This document shows, in pieces, positions 4,037 through 63,657 of a DNA stretch of 64,000 nt. The position numbers and the translations under genes were made by a program. Each line of letters opens with the position of its first letter. The first letter of the stretch is position 1. The notes beneath the pieces were generated by a model that made no database searches, was not told the origin of the DNA, and saw only the letters and a list, made by a program, of their open reading frames with translations. Origin of the DNA: a phage; the sequence record PZ476263.1. The stretch is one strand, 5' to 3'.

Positions 4037-4074
4037 TTTAATTATAATTCACAGGGACGTGATTAGGAGATAAT

Positions 4075-28442: not shown

Positions 28443-28473
28443 CTTTATCTCCTTCGTTTAGGTTGAGGTAATC

Positions 28474-28502
28474 ATCTTACCCCAACCTTTATTACCTGTC
28501 AA
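28474..28502 (-). promoter_or_regulatory. sigma70-like promoter
   Basis: TTGACA-N17-TAAGAT on minus strand. Confidence 0.45.
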
Positions 28503-30002: not shown

Positions 30003-30077
30003 ATTAATACCTCACTCCCGTTATGTTACTTTTACTCCGATGTAAGAGGGGTATTATAACCCCTCTCGATTTATTTA

Positions 30078-30707
30078 TCAATCACAACTTGAAGAACTTG
30101 AACCGCTATCATAAGAGCTACTGTCATAAGAGCTGGATGAACTCTCATAAGATGATGAAGAAGAACTTGAAGAACAAGATCGACTAGGTTCATCGCTCGC
30201 CATAACAGCGGCATACGTTCCAATACCTCCTAAAACACCTGCTGTTAATGGTACGTCATTGTTGCTGTTGACTTGAGTTGTTCCAGATCGAGATGTCGAA
30301 TTATGGGCCTCTTTAATAAATTTACGTTTAGCCTTTGGCGGCAGTTTCTTACCTTGTGCATAAACAGGAAGGTCAACTTCTTTCAATTTCTCATCTAAAG
30401 GTTTAGCCTTTTTAGGTGGAACTTTTTCAAGCTTAGAAACTTTAACAGTTTTCTTGTCGATGTTAACTCCAACGACGACTTCATTTTCTTCCAGATCGGT
30501 TTCAAATTTTTGAATCTTCGGCTTAGTGAAACGAACACTTTCAGACTTAACATTTAAACCAACAGCTTCAACATATTCTTTTACCTTTTGGGGAGCCTGA
30601 ACATTGTTCACATACTTCCGAGAATTAATATACTCATCAACTTTTGAAGTTTCGATCTTGACAGGTACAAAAATAGATTTCACCCAAGAAAATAATTTTT
30701 TAAACAT
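30078..30707 (-). CDS. hypothetical protein with Ser-rich C-terminal tail
   Basis: 209 aa, Lys-rich middle, one hydrophobic segment, C-terminal 'SCSSSSSSSSYESSSSSYDSSSYDSGSSSSSCD' from repetitive DNA. Confidence 0.4.
   Translation of the reverse strand: MFKKLFSWVKSIFVPVKIETSKVDEYINSRKYVNNVQAPQKVKEYVEAVGLNVKSESVRFTKPKIQKFETDLEENEVVVGVNIDKKTVKVSKLEKVPPKKAKPLDEKLKEVDLPVYAQGKKLPPKAKRKFIKEAHNSTSRSGTTQVNSNNDVPLTAGVLGGIGTYAAVMASDEPSRSCSSSSSSSSYESSSSSYDSSSYDSGSSSSSCD
30080..30180 (-). repeat. simple-sequence (Ser-codon) repeat inside CDS
   Basis: Reiterated short units (tcataagagct and gaagaacttgaa variants) on the plus strand. Confidence 0.4.
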
Positions 30708-30739
30708 AACTTCCTCCTTTCAATTTTTAATTCGAGGCT

Positions 30740-30768
30740 ATTGTAATTCAATAGCCTTTGCTTGTCAA
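30740..30768 (-). promoter_or_regulatory. sigma70-like promoter with -10 inside an inverted repeat
   Basis: TTGACA-N17-TACAAT; 9-bp inverted repeat AGGCTATTG/CAATAGCCT spans the -10. Confidence 0.5.
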
Positions 30769-31945: not shown

Positions 31946-31975
31946 ATTATAGTTCATAAAGTATGGACCTGTCAA
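31946..31975 (-). promoter_or_regulatory. sigma70-like promoter
   Basis: TTGACA-N18-TATAAT on minus strand. Confidence 0.45.
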
Positions 31976-31984
31976 CATATTTAT

Positions 31985-32010
31985 ATAAATAAAAAGGCCA
32001 CCCGAAGGTG
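31985..32010 (-). terminator. rho-independent terminator (minus strand)
   Basis: On minus-strand RNA: GGUCACC-UUCG-GGUGGCC followed by UUUUUAUUU. Confidence 0.55.
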
Positions 32011-32021
32011 ACCTTAATAAA

Positions 32022-34805: not shown

Positions 34806-34836
34806 TTAATATTCTCCTTTGTGTTTTGATGTGGTA

Positions 34837-34865
34837 ATACTACTTACTTTTCTTTTTGTTGTCAA
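34837..34865 (-). promoter_or_regulatory. sigma70-like promoter
   Basis: TTGACA-N17-TAGTAT upstream of the 670-aa gene. Confidence 0.45.
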
Positions 34866-35010
34866 CCTCTTTGTAGAATTCTTTTAAAAATTCTTCGGGA
34901 GGGACTCCCTTTTTATAGTAAGGTAAGCAATCAGAGATCACAAACCACCTGTGTGTTTTCATAGACCAAACGATCTTCTCACACTCGGCAATATACTGGA
35001 TAAAGGTCAT
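34840..35010 (-). CDS. small protein (56 aa), not in ORF track
   Basis: ATG overlaps upstream stop (TAATG); overlaps the downstream promoter. Confidence 0.2.
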   Translation of the reverse strand: MTFIQYIAECEKIVWSMKTHRWFVISDCLPYYKKGVPPEEFLKEFYKEVDNKKKSK

Positions 35011-35216
35011 TAATCCTTTTTCCCATAAGAAAGAGATTCAAACTGAGATGAATCATTTTCAAAGGACACTTGCTTAGAGTCTTGTTGAGTCTGCTTGTCG
35101 ATCTGGATCAGGCATGTTTCAATCACCGACCCTAAAGGCATTCTCATGCTTTTGCTATAGGCAAGTAAAAACTTAAGTGCTTCTGCTTCTTCTTTTGACA
35201 TGTTTAGTGTAATCAT
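35010..35216 (-). CDS. hypothetical small protein
   Basis: Start at the internal ATG with SD AAGAGAG. Confidence 0.3.
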   Translation of the reverse strand: MITLNMSKEEAEALKFLLAYSKSMRMPLGSVIETCLIQIDKQTQQDSKQVSFENDSSQFESLSYGKKD

Positions 35217-35235
35217 TGTTTTCTCTCTTTTAGTA

Positions 35236-35421
35236 TTATACGTGAACAACAAACCAGACTTGATTTTTATTATTGTAAACTTCATAAGATTTTAGTATGG
35301 AGTAACAATATTTTTGAAATCCTTTTACTAAGATCGTTGTTTTCTCTTCAGGGATTTCTGAAATATCTACATCAAATATTTCCATAACTACCTCACCGCT
35401 TTCAATTATGCGAATATTCAT
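35236..35421 (-). CDS. hypothetical small protein
   Basis: 61-aa ORF. Confidence 0.25.
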   Translation of the reverse strand: MNIRIIESGEVVMEIFDVDISEIPEEKTTILVKGFQKYCYSILKSYEVYNNKNQVWFVVHV

Positions 35422-35431
35422 ATCAGTACCA

Positions 35432-35806
35432 CTATTTAAGTTTTTTCATCTTTTTGATCTGTGATGGCAAAATATAAGTTACTTCATTGAAGATTTCAAG
35501 ATCTTCTTTTTCAACCCATACTCGGCCCGTGTCTGGACAGAAAGTATGACCAACGAGGACAGTCATTGTGTTCTCTTCCCCGATCCCGTAGCAGGGTTGA
35601 CCATCACCATAGTTACTGAAAACAAAGTTTTCATTAGGTTTAAGTGCTTCACCTTGGACAAAGATAACGTAACCAGCTTCTTTCATCGCTTGGATTTCTT
35701 TTGCTCGTTCAAAGCCTTTCATGAAACGAGTGTAAGAGTGTTTATTGGCGAAATCTTTAATTTTGATCTCTTCTAACTTGATGTGGCGGATGTTCAAATG
35801 AGACAT
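35432..35806 (-). CDS. hypothetical protein
   Basis: 124-aa ORF. Confidence 0.4.
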   Translation of the reverse strand: MSHLNIRHIKLEEIKIKDFANKHSYTRFMKGFERAKEIQAMKEAGYVIFVQGEALKPNENFVFSNYGDGQPCYGIGEENTMTVLVGHTFCPDTGRVWVEKEDLEIFNEVTYILPSQIKKMKKLK

Positions 35807-35818
35807 TTTGTTTTCCTC

Positions 35819-35995
35819 TTATTTGTTAATGAATTGGCTAAGGATTTCGATAAGATCTTTAGCTTGTTTCTTGTCGAGAATCACGCTGTCTCCTGCGTGG
35901 AGGATTTCAATAACATCCTCTTCTGCATGATATTCAACTTCCTTTGCATGAAAATCTTCAGTTTCTTTAATCACTTTTACAATGCGCTGTGTCAT
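35819..35995 (-). CDS. small acidic protein (58 aa), not in ORF track
   Basis: ATG with SD AAGGAGAG; the 108-aa plus-strand ORF here is antisense to it. Confidence 0.3.
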   Translation of the reverse strand: MTQRIVKVIKETEDFHAKEVEYHAEEDVIEILHAGDSVILDKKQAKDLIEILSQFINK

Positions 35996-36105
35996 CTTGT
36001 TTCTCTCCTTTTCTCTCTTTCATCGTTTAGTTTCGATAAGGTGATAGTACATCAACTAACCAATTATTATTTAGCAATTAGTGCTAAACGCCATAATCAA
36101 TCTTA

Positions 36106-36348
36106 TTAATTTTCATTTAATACCCTTAGTGATTTCTTTTCACAAATATCCCTGAGCCTGACTACCTCTCCTATTAGATAGGAAATAGCCTTAGCTTGTA
36201 CTGGTTCATCGTAATCCCCAACTGTCCCAAACACTTCATCGAGAGATAGGAAGAACCCTGAAGAGTAAATACTGTTTTGATCTTCTATAGCACGGTCTGC
36301 ATTAAATTTAATATCTTCCAGGGTGCTATTACTGATATTCATAGTCAA
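36106..36348 (-). CDS. hypothetical protein
   Basis: 80-aa ORF, ATGA overlap with downstream gene. Confidence 0.3.
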   Translation of the reverse strand: MTMNISNSTLEDIKFNADRAIEDQNSIYSSGFFLSLDEVFGTVGDYDEPVQAKAISYLIGEVVRLRDICEKKSLRVLNEN

Positions 36349-36725
36349 ACTCCATAATCTATCTTAACAAGCTTCCCTTTGTAGTATCCAAAGTTTTTAG
36401 GAAATGCGTCGTACTCGAAGAAATCTCGGTCAAGGGTTCTATCTTTATCGTTATCAATCTCATCATAAAGTTTTTGTAGATCAGCTTTAAATAATTCCTC
36501 ATTTTCTACTGGTTTAGCCTTGTGCATCACAACCATAAGTCCGAACCTGTTTGAGTGAGCTATTGGGCACAGATGCGGGTTATTATACCCTTTCCACTGA
36601 CCCTCTGTCATATTGCTGAGCATTCCTTGAACAAACGCCTTCCATGAATTAAATCTTGGGAACTTAATCGCATACTTGTTTGTGATTATGACAATTCTCG
36701 TCCCGCCACTCCTGTTTATCTGCAT
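36345..36725 (-). CDS. hypothetical protein
   Basis: Start set at the internal ATG with SD GGAG, because the ORF-track start lies inside the promoter -10. Confidence 0.35.
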   Translation of the reverse strand: MQINRSGGTRIVIITNKYAIKFPRFNSWKAFVQGMLSNMTEGQWKGYNNPHLCPIAHSNRFGLMVVMHKAKPVENEELFKADLQKLYDEIDNDKDRTLDRDFFEYDAFPKNFGYYKGKLVKIDYGV

Positions 36726-36765
36726 CTTAATATCTCCAGACCTCGTTACTTGTTTCGATGAGGGC

Positions 36766-36793
36766 ATCATACCAGAATGAATCTGTGTGTCAA
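36766..36793 (-). promoter_or_regulatory. sigma70-like promoter
   Basis: TTGACA-N16-TATGAT on minus strand. Confidence 0.4.
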
Positions 36794-36807
36794 CACTTTT
36801 TATTCAG

Positions 36808-36834
36808 GCAATAAAAAACCACCCCGAAGGGTGG
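36808..36834 (-). terminator. rho-independent terminator (minus strand)
   Basis: On minus-strand RNA: CCACCC-UUCG-GGGUGG followed by UUUUUUAUU, just downstream of the polymerase 3' exon. Confidence 0.55.
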
Positions 36835-36852
36835 CTTAAGATTAAAGTTTCA

Positions 36853-37755
36853 TTAGTGACAATCTCCCCAGCTGTATCCACACAAGTATTCCCCTGTGAT
36901 ATGCACTGGTGATTTCATCATCTTAGCTGCTTGTTCGACACAACGAACAACCATCTCTCCTACAGGGCAGTATGTAATAGTGAAGATACCATTTTCATCT
37001 GGATCACACTTAAACTTACCTTCCTTGACACAATGGCCTTCGAGGACCATCTTCTTAGCAAGACATGCCTCAACAAAAGCTTTTGCATCAGCTTCGTTAT
37101 CAAACTTCCATACCTTTTTGAACTTCTCCGGCACTTCAAGCTGGTACTCGTCATGGTAATAAATTGTACGACGTACACCTTGATCATACCAACCTTTTTT
37201 AACCAGCTGCCAATGCAACAGGATACCTACCAAGTCAAACATGGCAGCACCACCGTTCTGTTGGAAAGCGTTAAGCAATGAGTGTTTGGATCGGGTATAG
37301 ATCTTACGACCATCAAGACCATAAATGAATCGTTTACCGTTGGCTTCCCAAAACTTCTCAAGTGCTTCTTTACGACCTTTCAAACCTAAGTTGCTATCCC
37401 AAAATGCATCGATTACTGCTTGTGCTTTCTCCAATGAAATTCCAAGCATGGATGCAATCTTAGCTGCTTGAGCACCGTACATAATTCCATAGGTGATCCC
37501 CTTTCCTTCCCCACGAGATACTTTCTTACCCGCTGCCTTGGTATATGCTTCTGCGTTTCGACTATGAGCATCACCACTTTCCATAATTCGGAGGTAAGCA
37601 CCACCATCGAATTCATAACTTCCCCATGCAGCGACCATACCCTCTAAGTTAGAACCGTCTATACCTACCTGATACTTACCCTCGGGTACAGTGAAAAGGT
37701 CACGCATTTCTTTACCTAGAAGAACCTTAGGATCAGGCTTCGGCACGTTAGCACA
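36853..37755 (-). CDS. DNA polymerase (family A), 3' exon
   Basis: Contains motif A-like 'VGIDGSNLEGM', motif B-like 'ITYGIMYGAQAAKIA' and motif C 'YHDEYQLEV'. Frame stays open upstream of the GTG ('..ANVPKP', cf. PNLxNIP). Confidence 0.75.
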   Translation of the reverse strand, partial: CANVPKPDPKVLLGKEMRDLFTVPEGKYQVGIDGSNLEGMVAAWGSYEFDGGAYLRIMESGDAHSRNAEAYTKAAGKKVSRGEGKGITYGIMYGAQAAKIASMLGISLEKAQAVIDAFWDSNLGLKGRKEALEKFWEANGKRFIYGLDGRKIYTRSKHSLLNAFQQNGGAAMFDLVGILLHWQLVKKGWYDQGVRRTIYYHDEYQLEVPEKFKKVWKFDNEADAKAFVEACLAKKMVLEGHCVKEGKFKCDPDENGIFTITYCPVGEMVVRCVEQAAKMMKSPVHITGEYLCGYSWGDCH

Positions 37756-38959
37756 ATATGTTCGTTAAAGGTCGCAACTCTTTAACCGGGATCGTATACA
37801 CCTGAAGAAATATCTCTTCACACTTTCGAGTACGATTCCTGTTTCTTTTGCTACGTCACAGAAATCTTTCCCATCAAGTATCATTTTTGTTATCTCTAGT
37901 TCCAACTCTTCTTTAGTTTTGTTTCTTAACTTACTGACCCCAAAAGTTTTATCTTCGGCAAATTTACCGATAAAAAATCTAACTGTCGGTTTCTCTAAGT
38001 TTAGGATCTCACAAATCTTTAAAAGAGTCGCACCTTTCCACCATAAAGATCTTGCTTCTTCTGCAAGATGTTTCTTTTCTTCCACTTCAGAAACACATTT
38101 CCCCATGTCGAAAGTTTTTAAGTATCTTGCTGCAAAGTGCCTTTCTTGTCCAAGGTCCAGAGAGATTTTTGCATACGAATCACCTGCCAGATATCTTTTA
38201 TGGATGTGCAGATACATCTCTCCATAGTTATCAAAGCCGGATTGTTTTGCTCTATTATCTCTTTTTGCCATTGAACTTCTTTCAGATGCGATAGTTTTTA
38301 TGGACTCACCAAAAGAGTTTCCAATTGCATCTGGACTAGGACTCACCGCTGAAAAAGTATTATTAGTCATGTTATAGAATTCTGTATTGTTGGCTGCATC
38401 ATTCTCTAAAAGAACTTTTTCTTCGATTTCACGAAGGAGATCTCTTTTGTCTACAACTTCCAACACCTCAGCTACAAATCTATGACCACTTTTTAAATCC
38501 TTTTTCATATCTGGATTGGAAGAGGACCCAAGATAAGGTTTTCCACTCTTAATCGAGATTATTGTGGGGATTCCATCCACATCTATCACTTTGCATTCAC
38601 TTTTACTTCCGATATATTTGTTCGGGTATTCTTCTTTATCGATGTTTTTCAAGAGATAAACAATGTTCATGTATACGTCCTCCGCTGTATCTTTCAACAC
38701 AGTTCAGACTATATCTTTGACACACTAAAGGATAGCTGAACCAATCTACCCCTAATGTATCACAAACCACTTCGATTGTCTACGCTTACAATCTACGCCT
38801 TCCGGCTAGTCGTTGAACCTTCTACCTGTCTGGTAGCTTGGCTGCTGATTGCCCAATCCTTTAACTTTTTAAACCTTCGCTTTGTATTCCTACTCGCAGT
38901 GGTATAAAGGCTCTAAGGGGTTCCCAGCAATTCAATTTGTTTTATACTGAGGCAGCTTT
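37756..38959 (-). mobile_element. group I intron (with homing endonuclease ORF) in the DNA polymerase gene
   Basis: Minus-strand RNA carries the conserved elements in order: P-like AAUUGCUGGGAAC (38920-38931), Q-like AAUCAGCAGCC (38840-38850), R-like GUUCAACGACUAG (38806-38818), S-like AAGAUAUAGUC (38707-38717). Boundaries approximate. Confidence 0.7.
37765..38670 (-). CDS. GIY-YIG family homing endonuclease (intron-encoded)
   Basis: Starts 'MNIVYLLKNIDKEEYPNKYIGSK...' (IVY...YIGS, cf. I-TevI GIY...YVGS); SD GGAGGA; ORF lies 3' of the intron core. Confidence 0.6.
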   Translation of the reverse strand: MNIVYLLKNIDKEEYPNKYIGSKSECKVIDVDGIPTIISIKSGKPYLGSSSNPDMKKDLKSGHRFVAEVLEVVDKRDLLREIEEKVLLENDAANNTEFYNMTNNTFSAVSPSPDAIGNSFGESIKTIASERSSMAKRDNRAKQSGFDNYGEMYLHIHKRYLAGDSYAKISLDLGQERHFAARYLKTFDMGKCVSEVEEKKHLAEEARSLWWKGATLLKICEILNLEKPTVRFFIGKFAEDKTFGVSKLRNKTKEELELEITKMILDGKDFCDVAKETGIVLESVKRYFFRCIRSRLKSCDL

Positions 38960-40694
38960 AGTTTACCACAGTGTGTTTACGACGGCCTGTATTCGTTATT
39001 CCAGTATAACGTGCAGGTAATTTACCGTCCACCGCAAGTCGAGGATGGTTTAACCAACCTGTATCTACTTTATCCTCTTTCAAAGGATCAAGAACACTTC
39101 GACGGTTACGAAGAGATAGCCATTTTACAATCTGCTTTGCCATATCACCATCGACTCGCTCAAGGTTAGGACAAAGGCCCTGCTGATCCTTAAGCTGCGG
39201 TGATGTTGGTAATGCTCTTGCCTTCTTCCTGAAGAACTTATACATCTTCTCTTTATCTTGCCACTGCTTACCACTGATACCTAAACTTTTCAGAATCAGA
39301 TCGCGATATTCAGTCTGGTCAAGATCATCAATGTATTGACGAACAATGATATCGACTTCGTTATCGGGACGTTGTTTCTTAAACTGGTCCTTCGTCGCAT
39401 CTTTGGTTCGCCACAATGTTGGGACCCAACCCGCATCACGAATAAGGAATTTTTTAACGTCATCCTGATTACCAATACGCATCGGAATCATAATATCCGG
39501 CATCTTTTGATCTTTGATATCCATCAATGCACGGGCCATGTCTTCCGGTGGCAAAGGTACAAGATTTTCCTTTTTCACATTTTGAGAACGAATAAATTCA
39601 GCCATTTTGGATTCATCTTCTACACCATGCTCTACACAATACTTAATTGCAGCAGATGTGAGTGAACCATCGCCCTTAAACGGCTTACTTGGAGCGCCTT
39701 TAAATTCAAGAGCTTCCCAATTCACATTGTAACCTAACTTCTCTAACCATTTCCAGCCCGTACCAGAAAGAGATCCATCTCCTTTAAACGGCTTAGACGG
39801 GAAAGTAGGCTGTGCTGACTTGGACATCTCTTTCTTCGGCAGCTTTGGTTCAACCTCTTCTTCAATTTCTTTCATCATCGTATCAATACGATCACGCAAA
39901 GCTAAACCTTTCTCCACGTCGAAAGTAACACCCTGAATTTCTTGCTCAACCATCAAATAGTCGGTAAGCATACCTCGACGCAAGGCATTCTTCCAATTGA
40001 TGAGCTTCATCTTCTTCGGATCTTTGTCCGATTCATCTTTGTACATGAAACGTTTATCATCCGGCATAGAGTCACATGAAATTTCTTTCATGAGGGCATC
40101 CCATACCATTTCGTTGATGATTACGTCTTCAATAATACGATCACAATATTTCCACAAAGGGAGTCCACGCCAATCTTCGATTGCTACCTTCTGGTTTGCT
40201 ACTCGCATACCCCAAGCTTCAAGTCCATGAGGGCCTACAGGCTTCATTTTACCTGTAACTGGGTTCTTTACCATCTCGGGACAACCGCGCGGCAGAGGGC
40301 GATCTGGATACAGTGTACGGGACATTGAAAGGGTATCGAAGATGTTAACTTGTTTACCATTGATAGTCCCCATGCAACCAGGGTCTGCAAACATATCGTA
40401 TGTTGTTCCAAACATCTTTTTAAACAGCTGTAAGTCATAGCCGAAGATATTATGGATAGCAACAGCTTTTGGTTCAGTCACAAACCACTCATTAAGTTCT
40501 TCCAACTTACGGATCTTAAAGTTCTTACCTTTGGATTGAATAAACTTAACCGCTTGCTCGTAGCCTTCGCGGTTCGGATCGATAAAAATATTCCAATTGT
40601 CCTTTTTGTACTCTTTAAAAAGAACACAGTGAACAAGATCAACTTCTGTCAACAGGCCGTTAGCCTCTGCATCTCCAATAAACAAACCTTTCAT
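38958..40694 (-). CDS. DNA polymerase (family A), 5' exon with 3'-5' exonuclease domain
   Basis: N-terminus 'MKGLFIGDAEANGLL' matches the T7-type Exo I motif; ends '...YTGITNTGRR' (cf. TGR..PNL.NIP) before running into intron sequence. Confidence 0.75.
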   Translation of the reverse strand: MKGLFIGDAEANGLLTEVDLVHCVLFKEYKKDNWNIFIDPNREGYEQAVKFIQSKGKNFKIRKLEELNEWFVTEPKAVAIHNIFGYDLQLFKKMFGTTYDMFADPGCMGTINGKQVNIFDTLSMSRTLYPDRPLPRGCPEMVKNPVTGKMKPVGPHGLEAWGMRVANQKVAIEDWRGLPLWKYCDRIIEDVIINEMVWDALMKEISCDSMPDDKRFMYKDESDKDPKKMKLINWKNALRRGMLTDYLMVEQEIQGVTFDVEKGLALRDRIDTMMKEIEEEVEPKLPKKEMSKSAQPTFPSKPFKGDGSLSGTGWKWLEKLGYNVNWEALEFKGAPSKPFKGDGSLTSAAIKYCVEHGVEDESKMAEFIRSQNVKKENLVPLPPEDMARALMDIKDQKMPDIMIPMRIGNQDDVKKFLIRDAGWVPTLWRTKDATKDQFKKQRPDNEVDIIVRQYIDDLDQTEYRDLILKSLGISGKQWQDKEKMYKFFRKKARALPTSPQLKDQQGLCPNLERVDGDMAKQIVKWLSLRNRRSVLDPLKEDKVDTGWLNHPRLAVDGKLPARYTGITNTGRRKHTVVN

Positions 40695-43963: not shown

Positions 43964-44644
43964 TTAGTGATTGAATTTAAAAACTGCCCGTGCAAAACCT
44001 TCTGGTGTTAGTGATCGCAATTGTTTTGTCCGATCAGACTTTCCACCTAAATACCGCCATCCCCAAAAACATCCAATATGTTCAACAGGTTTCTTTTCAG
44101 GCATTATAAACCCATTTCCTGACCAAAGGCAAGTCTTTTTAGTGTAGGCATTCTGTAAAGGCATCTGAGGATGATAAGAACCTTCGTGTGGTTCCAGATA
44201 ACCCCCATACTCATACGGATCAAAGTAATGGTCAGGTTTTCGCCATAGGGTACTCATCTTTCCTACAGGATTCTCCACAAACCAAGGACAATTAAATGTA
44301 TTCGCAATCCGCTCTACCATTTTTGCATTGATGATTGACTCCATCAACTGATCATTAGTCCTCTCATGTTTTGCACCCGCTACCGTTAAGTTTGTGCAAG
44401 AAGGGAAAGAGAAGATGATATCTGGCTTTGGGATACCCGCTTTGGCTGCAAAGGCTTCAAAATTATCATCAATCCAACAATTCACATACTCAATATTTGG
44501 ATGCTCTTTACGCATCTTGTACTGACCGTGATCCGCCGTATCGGCATTGAAGCAATAAACTTTCCAACCTGCCTTTGCATACTCATAGCCCATAAAGCCA
44601 CTACCGTCAAAAAGCGACCAAACCACTTTAAAAATATTAATCAT
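43964..44644 (-). CDS. methyltransferase-like protein with C5-cytosine-MTase-type motifs
   Basis: 'SLFDGSGFMG' (motif I-like F.G.G), 'FPSCTNLTVAG' (Pro-Cys motif IV-like), 'FVENPVG' (ENV-like motif VI). Only 226 aa, no obvious target-recognition domain. Confidence 0.35.
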   Translation of the reverse strand: MINIFKVVWSLFDGSGFMGYEYAKAGWKVYCFNADTADHGQYKMRKEHPNIEYVNCWIDDNFEAFAAKAGIPKPDIIFSFPSCTNLTVAGAKHERTNDQLMESIINAKMVERIANTFNCPWFVENPVGKMSTLWRKPDHYFDPYEYGGYLEPHEGSYHPQMPLQNAYTKKTCLWSGNGFIMPEKKPVEHIGCFWGWRYLGGKSDRTKQLRSLTPEGFARAVFKFNH

Positions 44645-44645
44645 A

Positions 44646-44975
44646 TTATCCTCGGATTGAAAGTTTCGCCAAATAAAATATAACCAGGTACAAGCCGTAT
44701 GCTAACGCAACCGAACTCAGTATTGTAATTGTGACAGGCAAGGCCCATAAAAGAACGATAATCATCATCGTTAAACCGAATGCTCCACCAAAACACTCTA
44801 AAAAAGCTTCACTTCCGAACTTAATGGGGTCCAAAGATTTCTTTATCTTGTCCCTTAGGAAAAGAAAAGACATAATAACAAATATTGCGATCCCCAGCAA
44901 GACCCATTGGGTAACAGAGGTGTTTTGTCGGATAAAATGATACCATGCATCATAAATTACTGTCAAGTTTTCCAT
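44646..44975 (-). CDS. membrane protein
   Basis: 109 aa, three hydrophobic helices. Confidence 0.4.
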   Translation of the reverse strand: MENLTVIYDAWYHFIRQNTSVTQWVLLGIAIFVIMSFLFLRDKIKKSLDPIKFGSEAFLECFGGAFGLTMMIIVLLWALPVTITILSSVALAYGLYLVIFYLAKLSIRG

Positions 44976-45301
44976 TAGGTCCTCACTGATAGTTTAACAA
45001 GGATTTCAATAATTTTTACAAGTACAAAGATTAAGACTGCAAAAATAGACACAAAAATAATCAAAGGTAAAAGGTATATTGTCCCTGTGATCAATGCTGA
45101 AATAAGTAAGGAAAAGAAAATCTCCGGTACACCATCCCAACACCACAGTTGCTTACTCTTTTTGTATTGATACCTTAAAATACCAAATAAAGATACAATT
45201 GAAAAAGATATGAAAATGATAAATGGTGTTTCCTTCGAGATCAAGAAACTTATTACATCATTAAACCAAAATATTACGACTCTCTGTGCGAATTCAATCA
45301 T
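44975..45301 (-). CDS. membrane protein
   Basis: Start at the ATG overlapping the upstream stop; three hydrophobic helices. Confidence 0.35.
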   Translation of the reverse strand: MIEFAQRVVIFWFNDVISFLISKETPFIIFISFSIVSLFGILRYQYKKSKQLWCWDGVPEIFFSLLISALITGTIYLLPLIIFVSIFAVLIFVLVKIIEILVKLSVRT

Positions 45302-45507
45302 TTCTTTTTCCTCTCTTTCTTCTCTGGTTTTACATCGCAAATTTTGGCTTCATATGCAATTGGTGTTACATAGCGCCAAGTCTTTTTGTAATGGTCGAGG
45401 AGTTCTCTCATATTCTCCTCGTCCTTTGCCCAACCACAAACGTGAGGTATTTCATCAACAGACATTTGACACTTAATATACCAACGCGTTTCTGTGTTTT
45501 TATTCAT
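45298..45507 (-). CDS. hypothetical small protein
   Basis: Start at the ATG overlapping the upstream stop; basic C-terminus. Confidence 0.3.
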   Translation of the reverse strand: MNKNTETRWYIKCQMSVDEIPHVCGWAKDEENMRELLDHYKKTWRYVTPIAYEAKICDVKPEKKERKKK

Positions 45508-45740
45508 GATTTTTTCACCAGTTCGTAAATCTCGAAGTCGGATTTCTTTACACACGCTCGCCAACCTGAAGATAAGCAACGAGCAACAACAAAGTCGTCT
45601 GGTAAAGAGGGTGTATTGTTTTCAACCATCAACACATCGCCTTTGAAAACATTAATTTCTATGCTTGTATTATCCCAACATACGTAAGAATAATTATCAT
45701 TTTTGGCAACTAAGAACATTTTAATATTTTTAATTGTCAT
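45504..45740 (-). CDS. hypothetical protein
   Basis: 78-aa ORF. Confidence 0.35.
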   Translation of the reverse strand: MTIKNIKMFLVAKNDNYSYVCWDNTSIEINVFKGDVLMVENNTPSLPDDFVVARCLSSGWRACVKKSDFEIYELVKKS

Positions 45741-46021
45741 TTTACCAACCCCAATTCATATGCCGAGTATAAATCATTTCCTTCGTACCCGTCAACAATA
45801 ATTTTCACATTTTTATCGCGACGCTCATCAACAACCATTCGAGATCCTGCGCCGGATTTAACAAGGTAGGTGTCCTTATTAACCCTTACCGTTTGTGTTC
45901 TTCTTGCAGAAACAATCTCAACCTGTGTATTTTTAGGAACAAATTTAACAATCTCCACCATAGTACCTTCGGTCCCCATTTCCATAAGGTCATACTTAAT
46001 AGCTTTCATTAATGTAGTCAT
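45737..46021 (-). CDS. hypothetical protein
   Basis: 94-aa ORF. Confidence 0.4.
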   Translation of the reverse strand: MTTLMKAIKYDLMEMGTEGTMVEIVKFVPKNTQVEIVSARRTQTVRVNKDTYLVKSGAGSRMVVDERRDKNVKIIVDGYEGNDLYSAYELGLVK

Positions 46022-46191
46022 TGTGCATTCTCCTCTGAAGGGCCTTCTTTAGCCTTTGCAATTGCGTTAATAGTGATTATATAGCTATCTTGTAAGTTTT
46101 CAAGCTCTTTCTTAGTGTCAAAAGGATACCATCCATCTTTAGACATCTTGGCTATGGTTTCGTAATCATCAAATTTCACATCTGAAGGCAT
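46018..46191 (-). CDS. small protein (57 aa), not in ORF track
   Basis: ATG overlaps upstream stop (TAATG) and its stop overlaps the next ATG (ATGA); product MPSDVKFDDYETIAKMSKDGWYPFD... Confidence 0.3.
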   Translation of the reverse strand: MPSDVKFDDYETIAKMSKDGWYPFDTKKELENLQDSYIITINAIAKAKEGPSEENAQ

Positions 46192-46568
46192 TAGCATAAT
46201 TTTACCTCTTTGTTCAGAAAGTCTTTGGCAATAAGACGGATAATTTCTTCTGCGTTTTCAGAATTTACCACACCATAGTTCTTGAAAGGTAAAATGGTGT
46301 CTTCACAAACTTCTTCGAAGAATTTAAATTCGTCATCACATATTTCAAAATATTCGTCACCATTCTCCAGGCAAGTTAACTTTTTTCCATTTATACACAA
46401 AGCCTCTTCAATAAAATAAACCTCATTGAAAAGTCCAATTTTCGTAGGACAAAACACACCACCATTAGAATTAAGTAAATTTACCATTGGGGTGTTGGAA
46501 CGAGGATTATCCTCGACAAACTCAGAGACACGAGATTCTTTTAATTTGTACCATTTACCTAATTCCAT
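46191..46568 (-). CDS. hypothetical protein
   Basis: 125-aa ORF. Confidence 0.4.
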   Translation of the reverse strand: MELGKWYKLKESRVSEFVEDNPRSNTPMVNLLNSNGGVFCPTKIGLFNEVYFIEEALCINGKKLTCLENGDEYFEICDDEFKFFEEVCEDTILPFKNYGVVNSENAEEIIRLIAKDFLNKEVKLC

Positions 46569-46601
46569 CTTCTTTTCCTCTTTTATTGTGTTGATGAGAT
46601 A

Positions 46602-46630
46602 AGTATAAGGATATTTTAGGTGGCTGTCAA
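46602..46630 (-). promoter_or_regulatory. sigma70-like promoter
   Basis: TTGACA-N17-TATACT on minus strand. Confidence 0.45.
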
Positions 46631-46635
46631 TAGAA

Positions 46636-46662
46636 AAACCACCCCGAAGGGTGGTTTATTTT
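46636..46662 (-). terminator. rho-independent terminator after primase-helicase gene
   Basis: AAACCACCCC-GAA-GGGGTGGTTT with T-runs. Confidence 0.5.
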
Positions 46663-46670
46663 GAAAAATA

Positions 46671-48713
46671 TCAGAAAGGTGCTTCCTCGTCGAAATCCAC
46701 ATCTTCAACTTCCGGTACGTCTGGAATGTTTGCTGCCGCTTCGACAATATCTTGTTGCTCCCAAATCTCTTCCATAGGTTGTCCAAGTTCTTCCATTACT
46801 TCCTTCATCTCTTGCTTCTGAGCTTCAAGGAAGTTTTCATCCGGATCTGGAATGTCCTCTTCTGTGATATCCGAACGGGTAAGGTCCGAATTACTTTCCG
46901 ACAGAGGCTGGATTTCAGCTGCCTTTGGCTTAAAGTCTGGAGAACGATGATCATCTTCTGGATGTGCTGCATACCATTCCCGAAGAGTCTCATATGGACT
47001 GTCCAAAAAGCCTTCTGGCGGCTCAAGGTAATCACCCGTGTCAATGTCATAGAACACAGGGAATTTACCAGCACGACCGTGTTTACGGTCATCCAGAATA
47101 ACAAACCATGAAGTATTTCGTTGCTTCATAGGTAGTTCTGGATCTTTGTTACGCTCAATACCCCACATGTAATACGTGTTACGCATCATTGCACGACTAC
47201 CAGCAAACTGAGCTGATTGAACTTGACCACCAAACTCGTGTGGCTTACCTGCATCTGGCTTATTGAGGTGGCAGAAGCAATAATAAGTAAAACCAAGTTC
47301 TTTAGCCAGCTTGGAGATCTCATCAGAGAACCGCTCAAGTTCCTGGTTAGCCTCTGACGCACTCATACCCTGAACAAGTCGAGTGATCGGGTCAATAAAG
47401 ATATCTTCACACCCTTCTACGATTACAGCATGGCGGATAGCACCTTTCAGTTCATCCCATACTGCACGACCATAGTTGTTATAGTAAATTACACTATCAC
47501 CAACTTCATCTGTCGCCTTGATCAGCTCTTCCTGCTTAAAGTATCCACGTTGACCTTCAAAAACTTCATTGCCCCAAATGTCACGGTAAGTCCCGTCAGG
47601 TTGCGGAAGCATTACTTTTTCTGCGTTAACGAAGTCTTTATGATATCGCTTACCTGCAATCTTCTTACAGGTGATTTCGTTCTCTTCTTCAAACTTAAAT
47701 ACCGCTGCTTTTGCTTTCTCTACGCCAGTGATATGTTCAACCAGCTGGTTAAGCAATTCACTCTTACCCATTTTTACACCCGCACCAATGAAGTAACCTT
47801 CACCGAGGCGACGGCCCAAAGTAAGTTTTGTCAGTGTAGGCCAAGGGAATTTTTTACCCAGCTTAGGGATTTCATGAGCCTTTTCACGGAATTGTGAATA
47901 AGTTGAAAAACCGTCCGGTACATATTCCTTTGGTTTCATTGCTGCCCAAAACAACTGATCAGCAAGACCTTTGTTATACATGTCACAAGGGTCCATATCT
48001 TCAGGGATATCGACCACCTTCATTTGAGGAATAACAGAGTAAACTGCGGCAACCGCATCTTTACCCTTCATAATTCCTTTTGCTTTTTCTGCTTCAGTTG
48101 CCCGATCCGCATCGAAAGCTACAATAATCTCATCAAACTTACTTAACAGCTTATAGTTGTTCTTTTGTGACAAGTTCTGAACAGCGTTAGAAGTTCCGTT
48201 AGAGATGGAAACAACTGTGAAGTTCGGTTTACGTGTCGCACCATCTTTGGGTTTATACTTTTCACGAAGAACTTGCCAAAGAACGGCAGCATCGTATTCA
48301 CCCTCAGTGATAAAGATCATTCGTTTGGAGGATTTATTAGCACCTTCAAGACCAAACAGATCACAAGCTACCGATTGAAAACCGATAGTTGTAAAATGAC
48401 CTTTCTGCTGTTTTGGGATTGTAAGATCACGCTTCTTAAAACCTACAATCTTCCCATCCAAAGTATACGGAAAGTAATGTGCTTCTGCCGAAAGACCGTC
48501 TTTTGCGGAAAGCTTAGTACGAATACCAAAACGCTCTGCTGTCTTTTCATCGATACCACGCTCAGGGATTGCTTTGAACGGATAAGTCATTACATCTGCA
48601 ACTGTTTCTTCTACTCGCGAAGAACTGCTACCAAAACTACGTTGAACACTGGCCTTTGGATTCTTATGCCCAAATTTGTAACCGCCAAACAAACTTTCTC
48701 CGATGGTACTCAT
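46671..48713 (-). CDS. primase-helicase (TOPRIM plus DnaB/gp4-like helicase)
   Basis: TOPRIM-like 'IFITEGEYDAAV', helicase Walker A 'GAGVKMGKSE', acidic C-terminus '...DVDFDEEAPF'. No N-terminal Cys4 zinc ribbon seen. Confidence 0.7.
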   Translation of the reverse strand: MSTIGESLFGGYKFGHKNPKASVQRSFGSSSSRVEETVADVMTYPFKAIPERGIDEKTAERFGIRTKLSAKDGLSAEAHYFPYTLDGKIVGFKKRDLTIPKQQKGHFTTIGFQSVACDLFGLEGANKSSKRMIFITEGEYDAAVLWQVLREKYKPKDGATRKPNFTVVSISNGTSNAVQNLSQKNNYKLLSKFDEIIVAFDADRATEAEKAKGIMKGKDAVAAVYSVIPQMKVVDIPEDMDPCDMYNKGLADQLFWAAMKPKEYVPDGFSTYSQFREKAHEIPKLGKKFPWPTLTKLTLGRRLGEGYFIGAGVKMGKSELLNQLVEHITGVEKAKAAVFKFEEENEITCKKIAGKRYHKDFVNAEKVMLPQPDGTYRDIWGNEVFEGQRGYFKQEELIKATDEVGDSVIYYNNYGRAVWDELKGAIRHAVIVEGCEDIFIDPITRLVQGMSASEANQELERFSDEISKLAKELGFTYYCFCHLNKPDAGKPHEFGGQVQSAQFAGSRAMMRNTYYMWGIERNKDPELPMKQRNTSWFVILDDRKHGRAGKFPVFYDIDTGDYLEPPEGFLDSPYETLREWYAAHPEDDHRSPDFKPKAAEIQPLSESNSDLTRSDITEEDIPDPDENFLEAQKQEMKEVMEELGQPMEEIWEQQDIVEAAANIPDVPEVEDVDFDEEAPF

Positions 48714-50067: not shown

Positions 50068-50149
50068 TTGTTATCTCCTGTTCTTAAGTATGTGTGTACT
50101 CTATCATAAGTTTTGAAAGGTGCAAGTGTTAATTACACCTTTCTTAAAA

Positions 50150-51502: not shown

Positions 51503-51692
51503 TAATGTATTCTCCTACTTCTTCAGGATAAAGGACGTATGATTTACCATCTTTAAGGCTCTGTGCATAATAACAGAATACACTACCATCGGAAACAACT
51601 TCATCATACTCGATGTCTAAAACTTTAAAAATATCATTTGCTTTTGGATGATCGTCTCGGTCGCTGTAATCAGCCTTTAAAAAGATTTTCAC
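51495..51692 (-). CDS. hypothetical small protein
   Basis: GTG start with SD GAGGAG overlapping the hydrolase stop; the 90-aa track ORF would overlap the hydrolase C-terminal frame. Confidence 0.3.
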   Translation of the reverse strand: MKIFLKADYSDRDDHPKANDIFKVLDIEYDEVVSDGSVFCYYAQSLKDGKSYVLYPEEVGEYINE

Positions 51693-52205
51693 TTTTTCTT
51701 CTCCTCTTTGTCTTTGTAAAAAACATGATTTTCTATTGTAACCGTACGCTTGAGAAGTTTTCTCCAAATTGGTTTAACCTTCTTCGTATGATAGTACAGA
51801 GATCCGTATGTCGGGTCAAGTCTTTTATAAAGTAATTCATTATCTTTTATTTTGTGAACAAACTTAGATATGTTTATCGCAACTTCCCATGAATCTTTAT
51901 CAGTGATTCGATAATCAGATTTAACAAGTGTCCATGAAAATTGTGAAGACTGGTAAAAACACCCCCTTCATGGTGGTAGGGAACTTATCATGTTTCATTC
52001 TGTTCATGGTCACAAAAGCAACAGCCATCTGACCATTAACTGTCTCACCTCTCGCCTCCATATAGACATTACAGGCAAGAGATTTTACAGAATTATCCTT
52101 CTTACTGCATTTATGGATAACCTTCTGTGCTCTCTCTTTGGCATAAGTAAAGCCTGGTGCCAGAGACAGAGTACAAACTAAAACACCTAAAACAATATTT
52201 CTCAT
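51689..52205 (-). pseudogene. SleB-type cell-wall hydrolase with signal peptide, frameshifted
   Basis: N-terminal frame: signal peptide plus 'YMEARGE...MAVAFVTMNRMK...FPTTMKGV'. The continuation 'QSSQFSWT...YYHTKKVKPIWR' is in the +1 frame, with the break in an A5/C5 homopolymer near 51956-51966. Confidence 0.5.
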
Positions 52206-52226
52206 CTTTCCTCCAATTGAGGACCC

Positions 52227-52255
52227 AGTTTATCACTGGGTCGCTCTCTTGTCAA
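52227..52255 (-). promoter_or_regulatory. sigma70-like promoter with -10 inside an inverted repeat
   Basis: TTGACA-N17-TAAACT; 8-bp inverted repeat GACCCAGT/ACTGGGTC spans the -10. Confidence 0.45.
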
Positions 52256-52635
52256 TTCCCTTTTTTACTTACAATCTGATCAGCGATCCCTTTCCACAGA
52301 TCATTTAAGAAAGGATTGCTGGTGATAACTTCACCCAACCAAGGACCATACAGACGATAAACATAATCATCTGTTATCGCATACAAAGAACCTTGACGTA
52401 CTGCAAGTCCACGAACAAGGGAAGTTGTTACTCGTCTACCATAATCCCCTGTTTCTTTTGCAACGGATTCTTTGTTTTCAATATAACCAACAAGATTTAC
52501 GAGTTTATCAATACCATCGATCTTGAATCCACACTTACTTTCAAGATCTTCTTGCAAAGTACTAAAACCTTCCAAGCATAAATTGCCACCGAATTTTAAA
52601 CCATACTTAGCTGCAAATTTATCTTGTGAATTCAT
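52252..52635 (-). CDS. hypothetical protein
   Basis: 127-aa ORF. Confidence 0.4.
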   Translation of the reverse strand: MNSQDKFAAKYGLKFGGNLCLEGFSTLQEDLESKCGFKIDGIDKLVNLVGYIENKESVAKETGDYGRRVTTSLVRGLAVRQGSLYAITDDYVYRLYGPWLGEVITSNPFLNDLWKGIADQIVSKKGN

Positions 52636-53548: not shown

Positions 53549-53581
53549 AATAAAAATGCCCTCACTGTTTCCAATAAGGGC

Positions 53582-53610
53582 ATATTAATATAATTTTAAC
53601 TACCTGTCAA
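53582..53610 (-). promoter_or_regulatory. sigma70-like promoter
   Basis: TTGACA-N17-TAATAT; a 7-bp hairpin (ATGCCCT...AGGGCAT) follows in the leader. Confidence 0.45.
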
Positions 53611-56117: not shown

Positions 56118-56147
56118 TTTATTATCCTCTTTTGTTTAAGTAGGGTC

Positions 56148-56175
56148 ATTATACATGACCCTTATTGTGTGTCAA
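56148..56175 (-). promoter_or_regulatory. sigma70-like promoter with -10 inside an inverted repeat
   Basis: TTGACA-N16-TATAAT; 7-bp inverted repeat GGGTCAT/ATGACCC spans the -10. Confidence 0.5.
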
Positions 56176-58143: not shown

Positions 58144-58159
58144 ATTATTAAAAAAGTTA

Positions 58160-58188
58160 TTGACACGATAAACAAAACGCTCCATAAT
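58160..58188 (+). promoter_or_regulatory. sigma70-like promoter
   Basis: TTGACA-N17-CATAAT upstream of the AAA+ gene. Confidence 0.5.
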
Positions 58189-58220
58189 GAGCACATCAAC
58201 TAAACGAAAGGAGAAACAAA

Positions 58221-59455: not shown

Positions 59456-59484
59456 TTGACAACAAAATCTAACTGACTTATTAT
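59456..59484 (+). promoter_or_regulatory. sigma70-like promoter
   Basis: TTGACA-N17-TATTAT. Confidence 0.5.
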
Positions 59485-59496
59485 AGGGGCATCTCG

Positions 59497-59517
59497 AAAG
59501 GGGTGTCCCTTTTTAAT
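59497..59517 (+). terminator. terminator-like hairpin between promoter and start codon
   Basis: AAAGGG-GTGT-CCCTTT followed by TTT, located between the -10 and the SD of the VWA gene. Confidence 0.35.
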
Positions 59518-62393: not shown

Positions 62394-62921
62394 ATGAAAA
62401 TTGAAAGATCAATGGTTGAGAAGATTACCATCATGGGTCTTAAGAATTACACACCTATCACGGTGATTGTTGAAAATGGAGAGACGGAAGAGCAAGCGAA
62501 CATTAAAATATCTTGCTTTGGTGAAACTTGGTCACACTATTGGGGCAGTATGGGGTCATCGATTGGGGACTTCTTTAATCGTTGCGATAACGATTATCTG
62601 ATCTCTAAGTTAACCAATATCCCTCAAAAAGAAGAGGACTTGTTCCTTGATTGGAAAGTTATGCGTGATATTGTGCTAAAGGCAAGACGTAGACGAGAAA
62701 TTTCAGAGACAGATGCAAGACAGGCTTATTACTACATTTTATTTTATAAACCTGATCGTCATGAATTTGGAAATGGGTTGCCAGACGACCTTCAGCCTAT
62801 TGAAGAGTTGAGAGAATACTGGTATATTGACTGGCCTATGCGAGATAACCCGAAGTACAACTACATTTATGGGATCATTGATGCAGTACGAATTGCATTG
62901 AATACTGAAAAAGGTTGTTGA
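62394..62921 (+). CDS. hypothetical protein
   Basis: Start at the ATG with SD AAGAGG; the track start at 62370 lacks an SD. Confidence 0.4.
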   Translation: MKIERSMVEKITIMGLKNYTPITVIVENGETEEQANIKISCFGETWSHYWGSMGSSIGDFFNRCDNDYLISKLTNIPQKEEDLFLDWKVMRDIVLKARRRREISETDARQAYYYILFYKPDRHEFGNGLPDDLQPIEELREYWYIDWPMRDNPKYNYIYGIIDAVRIALNTEKGC

Positions 62922-62946
62922 CAACACCACATGGGTGCAGTAAGAT
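62918..62946 (+). promoter_or_regulatory. sigma70-like promoter with -10 inside an inverted repeat
   Basis: TTGACA-N17-TAAGAT; ATGGGT ... ACCCAT flanks the -10. Confidence 0.45.
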
Positions 62947-62976
62947 GTACCCATCAAGACAGAAGAGGGAAACAAA

Positions 62977-63657
62977 ATGAGTCATCTTATCGCAAAAATT
63001 AAACCAAACAAACTGGAAGAATTTCTTAAACGTGATTCTGCAAATAAATCTATTTATCATTCTTTGGGTGATAAATTTAAAATTAAACCTGCCAATTCAA
63101 GATGCCGAACAGCGGCCCCTGTACTTTTACCTCAGTATGGGTTCAGTGCAGAAGAAATTGAATATTTCATGAATGTAGTCCCAGATGAAAAATGTGAAGG
63201 GTTTGAATTTAAAGTTGTGTACACTGGAAATAAGGAACGGATGTCTTCTTACCTTGGAAGTTTGTTTGACGGAAAAGAGTTGGATTTTGAATTCACTGTT
63301 GAATTGAAATCCCTGAAATATGGCAGTACAGGAGAATTGGCTTGGTATTTTAAAGACCATCGGATTGACTTTTGTTTAAGTCATGGAGCATTTATTAAAG
63401 ATTTTTCCTTGACTTTAGATTCTGTTTTGGCATACTTAAAACATGTTCAAGAGAAACAAGACGCGGCAAATAAGAAACTAGAGGAGAGTCGAATGAATCC
63501 TAAGAATATTGCATCTCAACGCTACAACGGTTCTACAGTGCAGAGCATCCCTCTTGAGCTAGTAGTGGAAAAGAAAGTTGTAATCCATGATCTTGAAATC
63601 ACTAAACAAAACATTCAAGAAGTTTTTAAGAAAATCTCAAAAATGTTGGAGGACTGA
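62977..63657 (+). CDS. hypothetical protein
   Basis: 226-aa ORF. Confidence 0.45.
   Translation: MSHLIAKIKPNKLEEFLKRDSANKSIYHSLGDKFKIKPANSRCRTAAPVLLPQYGFSAEEIEYFMNVVPDEKCEGFEFKVVYTGNKERMSSYLGSLFDGKELDFEFTVELKSLKYGSTGELAWYFKDHRIDFCLSHGAFIKDFSLTLDSVLAYLKHVQEKQDAANKKLEESRMNPKNIASQRYNGSTVQSIPLELVVEKKVVIHDLEITKQNIQEVFKKISKMLED

Follow-up and report, generated by a model that had tools for sequence, protein, structure and literature searches.

Candidate PeSL-type cassettes with hairpins over predicted promoter -10 hexamers in an rV5-like phage

Six cassettes with a hairpin over the -10 hexamer

We identified six short intergenic cassettes, each combining a sigma-70-like promoter with a hairpin that spans the -10 hexamer, in a 64,000-nucleotide (nt) stretch of the phage record PZ476263.1 (this whole stretch is called the window below). 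Judged from their sequences, the six cassettes are PeSL-type elements, a known kind of promoter and stem-loop cassette, here in an rV5-like phage. We consider it probable that each is a composite cassette in which the hairpin acts as RNA, either attenuating or terminating read-through from the upstream gene or marking a 3' boundary. Sites are named by the 5' end of their -35 hexamer (Table 1).

The tail-sheath protein encoded in the window is 90% identical to those of the Escherichia phages A73, A5-4, W70, A7_1, LTH01 and UPEC06 and about 74% identical to those of Certrevirus phages; A73 is classified in the Vequintavirinae. Nucleotide similarity to the A73 clade is patchy in the early region (66-84%), and scans of IMG/VR with the proteins encoded downstream of the 56175 and 52255 cassettes retrieved no closer relative. 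The window derives from an rV5-like (Vequintavirinae) myovirus of a lineage without close representation in the collections searched.

Four of the cassettes correspond to an original prediction, made from the letters alone, that perfect inverted repeats of 6-9 bp span or flank the -10 of four promoters. All four repeats are present where it placed them, and each overlaps a sigma-70-like promoter recovered by an independent consensus scan (10-12 of 12 positions matching). The repeat at 56143-56161 had been drawn one pair short, its real extent being 8 bp at 56142-56162. The repeat ATGGGT/ACCCAT at 62931-62954 does have six perfect bp around a 12-nt spacer, but taken alone it is near chance because 6-bp repeats are frequent at non-credible promoter hits; it stands as an example solely because the RNA pairing extends further, to 9 bp. 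Two other promoters of like layout had been overlooked, with -10 hexamers at 30053-30058 and 28474-28479. These came from a census of promoter-like hits together with an RNA-fold census.

The six promoters match the sigma-70 consensus at 10-12 of 12 positions, with -35/-10 spacing within 16-18 nt. Counted from the start of the -35, the 5' arm of each hairpin begins after 11-15 nt (5-9 nt past the hexamer), and the 3' arm ends 5-13 nt past the -10, at or just beyond the expected start site. Folding energies range from -11.9 to -18.9 kcal/mol. The tails that follow the hairpins are CGAAUUAAA, CUCAAUUGG, ACUUAAACA, CAAGACAGA, UACAUCGGA and UAAACGAAG; none of the six has a U-run on the sense strand, there being 2-3 U per 8-9 nt tail. 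An Rfam search matched no RNA family at any of the sites.

The cassettes occupy intergenic gaps of 46-75 nt and fill them, reaching from the stop of one gene to the Shine-Dalgarno sequence and start codon of the next. The distance from the -10 to the start codon is 21-50 nt across the six sites and 21-32 nt at five, among them the four original sites, where a Shine-Dalgarno sequence precedes each start. Three of these four lie on the minus strand, which holds every gene from about 26.8 to 57.7 kb, and one (62918) lies on the plus strand. At five of the six sites (52250-52255, 56170-56175, 62918-62923, 28497-28502 and 30076-30081) a TGA stop codon falls within the -35 hexamer, as T-TGA-CA or T-TGA-TA, so that coding and promoter signals overlap directly. 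At 52255 it is the stop of the upstream open reading frame (ORF) 52252-52635, and this -35 is kept in A73, UPEC06 and LTH01. An AT-rich tract lies 5' of the -35 at 52255, 56175, 30768 and 62918 (e.g. gaaaaaggttgTTGACA), whereas at 30081 and 28502 the corresponding sequence is coding and not AT-rich.

Table 1. Coordinates of promoters, hairpins and terminators in the window (stem-loops are RNA folds; promoters are predicted; where a spacer is listed, it separates the -35 and -10 hexamers)
Feature	Position	Strand	Details
Stem-loop over -10, 52255 site	52219..52246	-	11 pairs with a bulge; -18.9 kcal/mol, z = -7.2; without U-tract
Core inverted repeat, 52255 site	52222-52242	-	GACCCAGT/ACTGGGTC, 8 bp, 5-nt loop GATAA
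Sigma-70-like promoter, 52255 site	52227..52255	-	TTGACA (52255-52250), 17 nt, TG-extended TAAACT (52232-52227); ORF from 52205
Stem-loop over -10, 56175 site	56142..56162	-	AGGGTCAT-GTATA-ATGACCCT, 8 bp; -12.8 kcal/mol, z = -3.8
Promoter, 56175 site	56148..56175	-	TTGACA, 16 nt, TATAAT, 12/12; ORF from 56117
Stem-loop over -10, 30768 site	30735..30757	-	AGGCTATTG-AATTA-CAATAGCCT, 9 bp, 5-nt loop; -11.9 kcal/mol, z = -4.8
Promoter, 30768 site	30740..30768	-	TTGACA, 17 nt, TACAAT, 11/12; ORF from 30707
Stem-loop over -10, 62918 site	62931..62954	+	AUGGGUGCA-GUAAGA-UGUACCCAU, 9 bp including one G·U, 6-nt loop; sense -13.5 vs antisense -8.6 kcal/mol; z = -3.8
Promoter, 62918 site	62918..62946	+	TTGACA, 17 nt, TAAGAT, 10/12; ORFan 62977-63657 downstream
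Stem-loop, 30081 site (overlooked earlier)	30045..30066	-	AGAGGGGT-TATAAT-ACCCCTCT; loop is exactly the -10 hexamer; -15.8 kcal/mol, z = -5.0
Promoter, 30081 site	30053..30081	-	TTGATA, 17 nt, TATAAT
Stem-loop over -10 TAAGAT, 28502 site (overlooked earlier)	28461..28487	-	GGUUGGGGUAA-GAUGA-UUACCUCAACC, 11 bp including one G·U; sense -12.0 vs antisense -8.0 kcal/mol
Promoter, 28502 site	28474..28502	-	-10 TAAGAT
Promoter 53582-53610, then hairpin and U-run 53556-53583	53556..53610	-	-18.6 kcal/mol, 7 U in tail
Promoter 59456-59484, then hairpin and U-run 59485-59510	59456..59510	+	Compensatory G:C to A:T change in relatives
Hairpin 50115-50143 enclosing the -35 of promoter 50103-50132	50103..50143	-	-14.3 kcal/mol; compensatory G:C to A:T in relatives
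Canonical terminator 46636-46657 (TTCG loop, U-run) abutting promoter 46602-46630	46602..46657	-	
Equivalent terminator/promoter pairs	36816-36837 with 36766-36793; 31994-32015 with 31946-31975		TTCG-loop terminators abutting the -35

Comparison with chance expectation

The overlap of promoters and hairpins is far from chance. Folding at or below -11.9 kcal/mol is reached by 1.6% of all 35-mers in the window and by 6 of about 17 credible intergenic promoters, from which a binomial estimate gives p of about 1e-7 to 1e-6. Against dinucleotide shuffles, the six hairpins have z-scores from -3.8 to -7.2, and no more than 2 shuffles in 200 reached the energy of the native sequence. Perfect inverted repeats with arms of 8 bp or longer and a 3-8-nt loop number 13 in the window, compared with 6.8 +/- 2.6 in Markov-1 simulations, and four of the 13 coincide with a promoter -10.

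Part of the hairpin background has a separate source. From about 100 to 5300 on the plus strand, the window holds long runs of GGxCCx-type triplets, coding for collagen-like Gly-X-Y repeats in ORFs 53-1729, 2420-4036 and 4075-5658. On either strand these runs fold locally into dozens of strong hairpins, which raises any genome-wide hairpin background.

Conservation of pairing in related phages

Conservation was examined in four GenBank genomes of a sister clade, with the early regions of A73, UPEC06 and LTH01 aligned at orthologous sites. Pairing is kept across about 20-30% nucleotide divergence. At 56175, UPEC06 has the same stem, A73 carries CA to TG in the 5' arm and LTH01 carries A to G in the 3' arm; all three one-sided changes are retained as G·U pairs, on the sense strand only, and no pair is broken. 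At 52255, an A to G change in the 3' arm of all three relatives yields a U·G pair. The automatic orthologue alignment at 28502 was distorted by an indel, and hairpins there were compared by eye and with single-sequence folds instead; the orthologues have a different stem, GTGGGGC/GCCCCAC, around a CATAAT -10. At the position of 30081, the relatives have a hairpin (GAGGGGCC-GAAA-GGCUCCUC) without a -10 box, indicating that the hairpin came first and serves a purpose that does not depend on the promoter.

True compensatory double changes occur at hairpins outside the -10-spanning class, namely those at 50132, 53610 and 59456. Further -10-spanning hairpins are found in the relatives, at positions 10532 and 49472 of the A73 locus and at 46123 in UPEC06. 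The sense RNA fold is stronger than the antisense fold at 8 of about 10 independent sites (e.g. -13.5/-8.6, -12.0/-8.0 and -11.5/-6.0 kcal/mol). What the sequence analysis shows, then, is how the cassettes are built, that they are not random, that their structure is conserved and that the folds favour one strand.

Relationship to PeSLs and other promoter-hairpin arrangements

PeSLs are repeated cassettes of the T4-type phages RB49 and phi1 in which a stable stem-loop accompanies a consensus sigma-70 promoter preceded by an AT-rich tract (Arbiol et al. 2010, PMC2839356). The stem-loop occupies five registers relative to the promoter, the most common being over the -10 or in the spacer between the two hexamers (PMC2839356). 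PeSLs are found mostly in front of ORFans in hyperplastic regions and at indel junctions, and mini-circle formation has been reported for those of RB49/phi1 (PMC2839356). The PeSL211/210 stem-loop lowered lacZ expression to an extent similar to that of the rrnB T1 terminator, and PeSL206/205 drove about 13,000 Miller units (PMC2839356). The elements were subsequently extended to other T4-like pairs, including PST/T4 and nt-1/KVP40, with different stem consensus sequences (Comeau et al. 2014, PMC4122927).

We used the RB49 region of ORFs 185-216 as a positive control. PeSLs 186/185, 193/192, 199/198 and 205/204 in this region have the -10-spanning layout without a U-tract, and the 211/210 hairpin that was tested by experiment (GGGGATCACGTATCCCC, then TATACTACAC) is also without a U-run. 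An nhmmer profile built from 12 RB49 PeSLs matched the window at 62911-62961 (E = 1.2e-5), 36734-36801 (2.1e-5) and 58152-58220 (4.7e-3), and it gave zero matches in 10 simulated windows. Within the A73 clade and the window, the cassettes also resemble one another: over 64 nt, that at 62918 shows 70% identity to the one at 56175 in the relatives, and there is shared leader sequence.

Like PeSLs, the window cassettes comprise a sigma-70 consensus promoter and a G/C-rich stem-loop in a variable register, here commonly over the -10; they take up the entire gap between the preceding gene's stop codon and the Shine-Dalgarno sequence and ATG of the next, and they recur in many copies among small genes and ORFans, with a possible association with indel junctions. 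They differ in several respects. The host genome belongs to the Vequintavirinae rather than to the T4-type phages, which concerns the described distribution and is no mechanistic requirement. The stems are heterogeneous rather than of the G(n)-loop-C(n) form, and the subclass with the stem-loop between the -35 and -10, dominant in RB49, is absent from the window, where the -10-spanning subclass dominates. At five of the six sites, moreover, the -35 itself contains the upstream stop codon instead of lying 3' of it. In the literature searched, PeSLs are described in T4-type phages only, with none in rV5-like phages, and papers on rV5-like genomes list sigma-70 promoters without mention of embedded hairpins. 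PeSL-type cassettes in the Vequintavirinae therefore appear to be unreported so far.

Promoter-coupled terminators, recently found to be widespread in bacteria, have a hairpin over the -35, a T-tract just 5' of the -10 and a 3' end about 10 bp before the start site, and a terminator that is weak by itself can work better when coupled to a promoter (Fletcher et al., bioRxiv 2026, doi 10.64898/2026.08.19.745784). The window cassettes likewise place a hairpin and the next gene's promoter on the same DNA between tandem genes, which saves space, but the six hairpins span the -10, end at the start site and have no T-tract. The cassette at 50103-50143 roughly fits the bacterial geometry, with a hairpin over the -35 and a T-rich 3' flank in the spacer.

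With intrinsic terminators the six hairpins have in common a G+C-rich stem directly past a stop codon. They differ from them in having no sense U-run (by a criterion of about 5 or more U in 8-9 nt) and in their AT-rich loops of 5-6 nt, which are set by the -10; canonical terminators do occur elsewhere in the window (46636-46657, 36816-36837, 32015-31994, 53556-53583 and 59485-59510). Hairpins are also found at the promoters of the phage N4 virion RNA polymerase and at plasmid F Frpo. Those hairpins create the promoter in single-stranded DNA and have conserved sequences, and those of N4 need a virion RNA polymerase, whereas the -35 and -10 in the window have normal sigma-70 duplex spacing and the stems are not conserved between sites.

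Gene content at the cassettes

Compared with the A73 clade, three of the six cassettes (30768, 56175 and 62918) lie at junctions of gene indels or replacements, as raw counts against distant relatives. At the position of 30768, A73 has an extra gene, A73_111, and no cassette. The 56175 cassette is itself conserved, while the gene upstream has no detectable homologue and only 29 residues of the downstream gene align. No homologue of the ORF that follows 62918 was found by tblastn in the A73-clade relatives or GenBank phages. Between A73 and UPEC06, 3 of about 8 non-intron indels break within or beside a promoter-hairpin cassette (again raw counts). This indel pattern agrees with what has been described for PeSLs.

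The window also carries a specific block of about 4 kb on the minus strand (32793-36770) with eight genes, including one for a 670-residue protein without a Pfam match. No homologue of the block was found in three A73-clade loci except for the 58-residue ORF 35819-35995, which matches UPEC06. The block is flanked by the terminator/promoter pair at 36837-36766 and the promoter at 32792-32764, and UPEC06 homology stops within the spacer of the 36793 promoter.

Proposed role of the hairpins and alternative explanations

By analogy with RB49/phi1, we infer that the six promoters are active and that the hairpins attenuate read-through. In the proposed arrangement, a sigma-70 promoter would be superimposed on a short G+C-rich hairpin such that the 5' arm lies in the spacer, the loop is the AT-rich -10 and the 3' arm is the discriminator just before the start site. 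Spacer and discriminator would be the sole promoter positions free to take up stem sequence, and the arms lie there. Because the 5' arm is upstream of the -10, only read-through RNA from the upstream gene would contain the complete hairpin, which would most likely attenuate or terminate that RNA, or at least give it a stable 3' boundary. Transcripts initiated at the promoter would begin at or in the 3' arm, without the 5' arm, and would escape the hairpin; the promoter would thus restart transcription for the next gene. The two signals probably overlap because the genome is very compact, a separate hairpin not fitting into gaps of 46-75 nt.

That structure in the sense-strand RNA matters is indicated by the fixed register of the hairpins, by stems that are not shared although the structure is kept, by wobble pairs on the sense strand only and by one hairpin that has no promoter. 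The original prediction had reasoned from different sequences with the same architecture to a structural role, and this reasoning is sound, although the architecture was not recognised there as an element type already described (PeSL). The structure is kept and the stems differ between sites and between orthologues. Among the roles it listed, a hairpin that stops read-through is favoured by the varying stems, the sense-only G·U pairs, the 30081 hairpin without a -10 and the analogy with the RB49 reporter; true termination is unproven because no U-tract follows the six hairpins.

Several points weigh against this proposal. There are only 2-3 U in the 8-9 nt past the stem, and the same genome uses canonical U-run terminators elsewhere; by the accepted rules for Escherichia coli RNA polymerase, such U-poor hairpins are poor intrinsic terminators. 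The bias between sense and antisense folds is marginal (p of about 0.05), the covariation comes from four genomes with two or three distinct sequences per site, and two or three substitutions at helix ends are disruptive (A73 10532 vs LTH01 31520; the UPEC06 orthologue of 28502). The indel association consists of raw counts, and about 40% of the genes in that region are without homologues in any case. When the 26 MEME-derived rV5 promoters (Table S4) were folded, few such hairpins were found, and the feature is not uniform across the subfamily: strong hairpins lay over the -35 only (P150 and P164) and a weak one over the -10 (P224), in a test that is itself weak as the published sequences end 7 nt past the -10. 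Promoter activity and RNA 3' ends in this phage are predicted.

Instead of terminating transcription, the hairpins could be intercistronic RNA stability barriers: after endonucleolytic cleavage in the A/U-rich leader, the stem would shield the upstream message from 3'-to-5' exonucleases, giving neighbouring genes unequal mRNA half-lives. Such a role would suit the missing U-tracts at the six hairpins, the single-stranded, A-rich sequence downstream (e.g. ACUUAAACAAAAG) and the relatives' hairpin at the 30081 position, which has neither U-tract nor promoter. The sense G·U bias suits any role at the RNA level, and the RB49 reporter measured lowered lacZ expression rather than termination itself. 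Sequence alone cannot separate this explanation from attenuation, but by itself it leaves unexplained the regular tie of hairpins to promoters in all registers, including those with U-runs, and we regard it as possible though unlikely. Cleavage by RNase III was considered and rejected, as stems of 8-11 bp are far below the typical substrate length of about two helical turns.

Read from the opposite strand, the same hairpins are followed by a T-rich spacer and TGTCAA, and could be antisense terminators that stop polymerases entering the early block against the grain. A terminator scan indeed flags 30045-30066, 52222-52242 and 56142-56162 on the plus strand, with 5 T per 8-nt tail. These tails are only moderately T-rich, however, and a sense G·U becomes an A·C mismatch in the antisense RNA; antisense folds are weaker at most sites (-8.6, -8.0, -6.0 and -4.5 kcal/mol), and all three substitutions at 56175 preserve the sense structure only. 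Antisense termination is accordingly very unlikely. We consider a role at the DNA level highly improbable too, whether the repeats were to bind a dimeric repressor or to tune or switch off the promoter by extruding small cruciforms or responding to supercoiling. At four of the six sites the arms do form a perfect palindrome around the -10, and the 3' arm renders the discriminator G+C-rich, a property that affects open-complex stability in E. coli promoters. Yet the operators of the original prediction find no half-site common to the sites (compare the arms AGGCTATTG, GACCCAGT, AGGGTCAT and AGAGGGGT), orthologous promoters have different arms, and the 30081 hairpin occurs in relatives without any promoter. 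Its cruciform or single-stranded DNA promoter elements fare no better: stems of 8-9 bp are short for cruciform extrusion, the -35 and -10 have normal duplex spacing, and two sites and several orthologues pair only by way of G·T, which leaves an A·C mismatch on the other strand.

The repeats might, lastly, have no function, being recombination scars or hitch-hikers between cassettes or chance repeats in constrained sequence. The weakest site has six perfect bp, which is common by chance, and cassettes do lie near indel junctions. The strong enrichment, the fixed register relative to the promoter, the pairing kept despite about 20-30% divergence and the same design in an unrelated phage family make this explanation hardly credible.

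Resemblance across phage families and implications

Beyond attenuation of read-through by a composite cassette, one could propose that PeSL cassettes are a cross-family module exchanged between unrelated coliphages, and that a hairpin without a U-tract stops read-through in a non-classical way, e.g. by means of promoter-bound polymerase; we hold this to be quite unlikely. The 62918 cassette and RB49 PeSL205/204 have AGTAAGAT...CCCATCAAGACA in common, and among 2.9 million IMG/VR viral contigs the pattern TTGACA-N17-TAAGAT-N3-CCCATCAAGAC occurs only in RB49-like genomes. A blastn search of GenBank phages with the 62918 cassette gave no match, the query being too short for a database of that size. 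Horizontal transfer from RB49-like phages was considered as the source of the CATCAA leader and downgraded. Convergence on the optimum of the host polymerase is at least as likely because similar start-site motifs are known, GAGCACATCA in lambda PL and CATCGA in T7 A1, and the shared CATCAA start motif is probably a case of it.

A related motif, (C/A)CATC(A/G)A, lies 4-8 nt past the -10 at the promoters 32792, 34865, 46630, 58160, 31975, 36793 and 62918, and is also present in RB49 PeSLs. It presumably marks the start site, and an A/C-rich leader then extends as far as the Shine-Dalgarno sequence. The motif probably reflects what suits E. coli RNA polymerase best.

The finding does not overturn current understanding. 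With it, a little-cited design that builds a stem-loop into a promoter, described in T4-type phages, is extended to the rV5-like subfamily, which suggests a general solution for dense phage early regions, in which each small gene would have its own strong promoter and be insulated from its upstream neighbour. The cassettes may also supply short conserved sequences for gene swapping. For annotation, terminator predictors that require a U-run will miss such hairpins, and promoters can overlap stop codons; for engineering, the cassettes could serve as compact insulator-plus-promoter parts.

Other promoter-hairpin registers and nearby genes

By our own reading of the promoter and fold scans, 13 of 16 intergenic promoters in the window have an associated hairpin in some register (5' of or over the -35, or over or past the -10), making at least 13 promoter-hairpin combinations in 37 kb. 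Examples from outside the -10-spanning class are included in Table 1. At the 53610 site, the stem sequence differs in A73 and pairing is retained. The start codon at 53548 has a single Shine-Dalgarno-like sequence (GAGGG) in front of it, which lies in the 3' arm of the 53556-53583 hairpin, and the predicted start of the 53610 promoter falls in the 5' arm. With this layout, the ribosome site would be masked in read-through RNA and exposed in RNA begun at the promoter. A73 and UPEC06 both retain the purine-rich 3' arm.

A distinct promoter class is found in the relatives, in a plus-strand block of tiny genes (A73 44618-48707 and the equivalent positions in a second relative). Here, a G/C-rich hairpin of 8-9 bp begins about 12 nt past the -10, a few nt from the expected start, so that it would belong to the promoter's own transcript as a possible 5' stabiliser. 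One replacement breakpoint between A73 and UPEC06 lies inside such a hairpin.

Directly downstream of the 52255 cassette, 51680-52205 on the minus strand is a gene for a SleB-like cell-wall hydrolase with a frameshift near codon 82; the 171-residue A73 protein aligns over residues 1-82 in a single frame and over residues 80-163 in the frame that follows. A sequencing error, a programmed frameshift or decay into a pseudogene could each account for the break. No tRNA genes were found in the window. A group I intron (Rfam RF00028, 73.8 bits) at 38685-39052 on the minus strand splits the DNA polymerase gene into 38958-40694 and 36853-37746. The ORF 37765-38700 on the same strand (311 residues) starts inside the intron match and occupies most of the gap between the polymerase exons; it has a weak, below-cut-off match to GIY-YIG (SegE-like) proteins and no homologue in the A73-clade loci. 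The A73 polymerase gene is also interrupted, at a different place.

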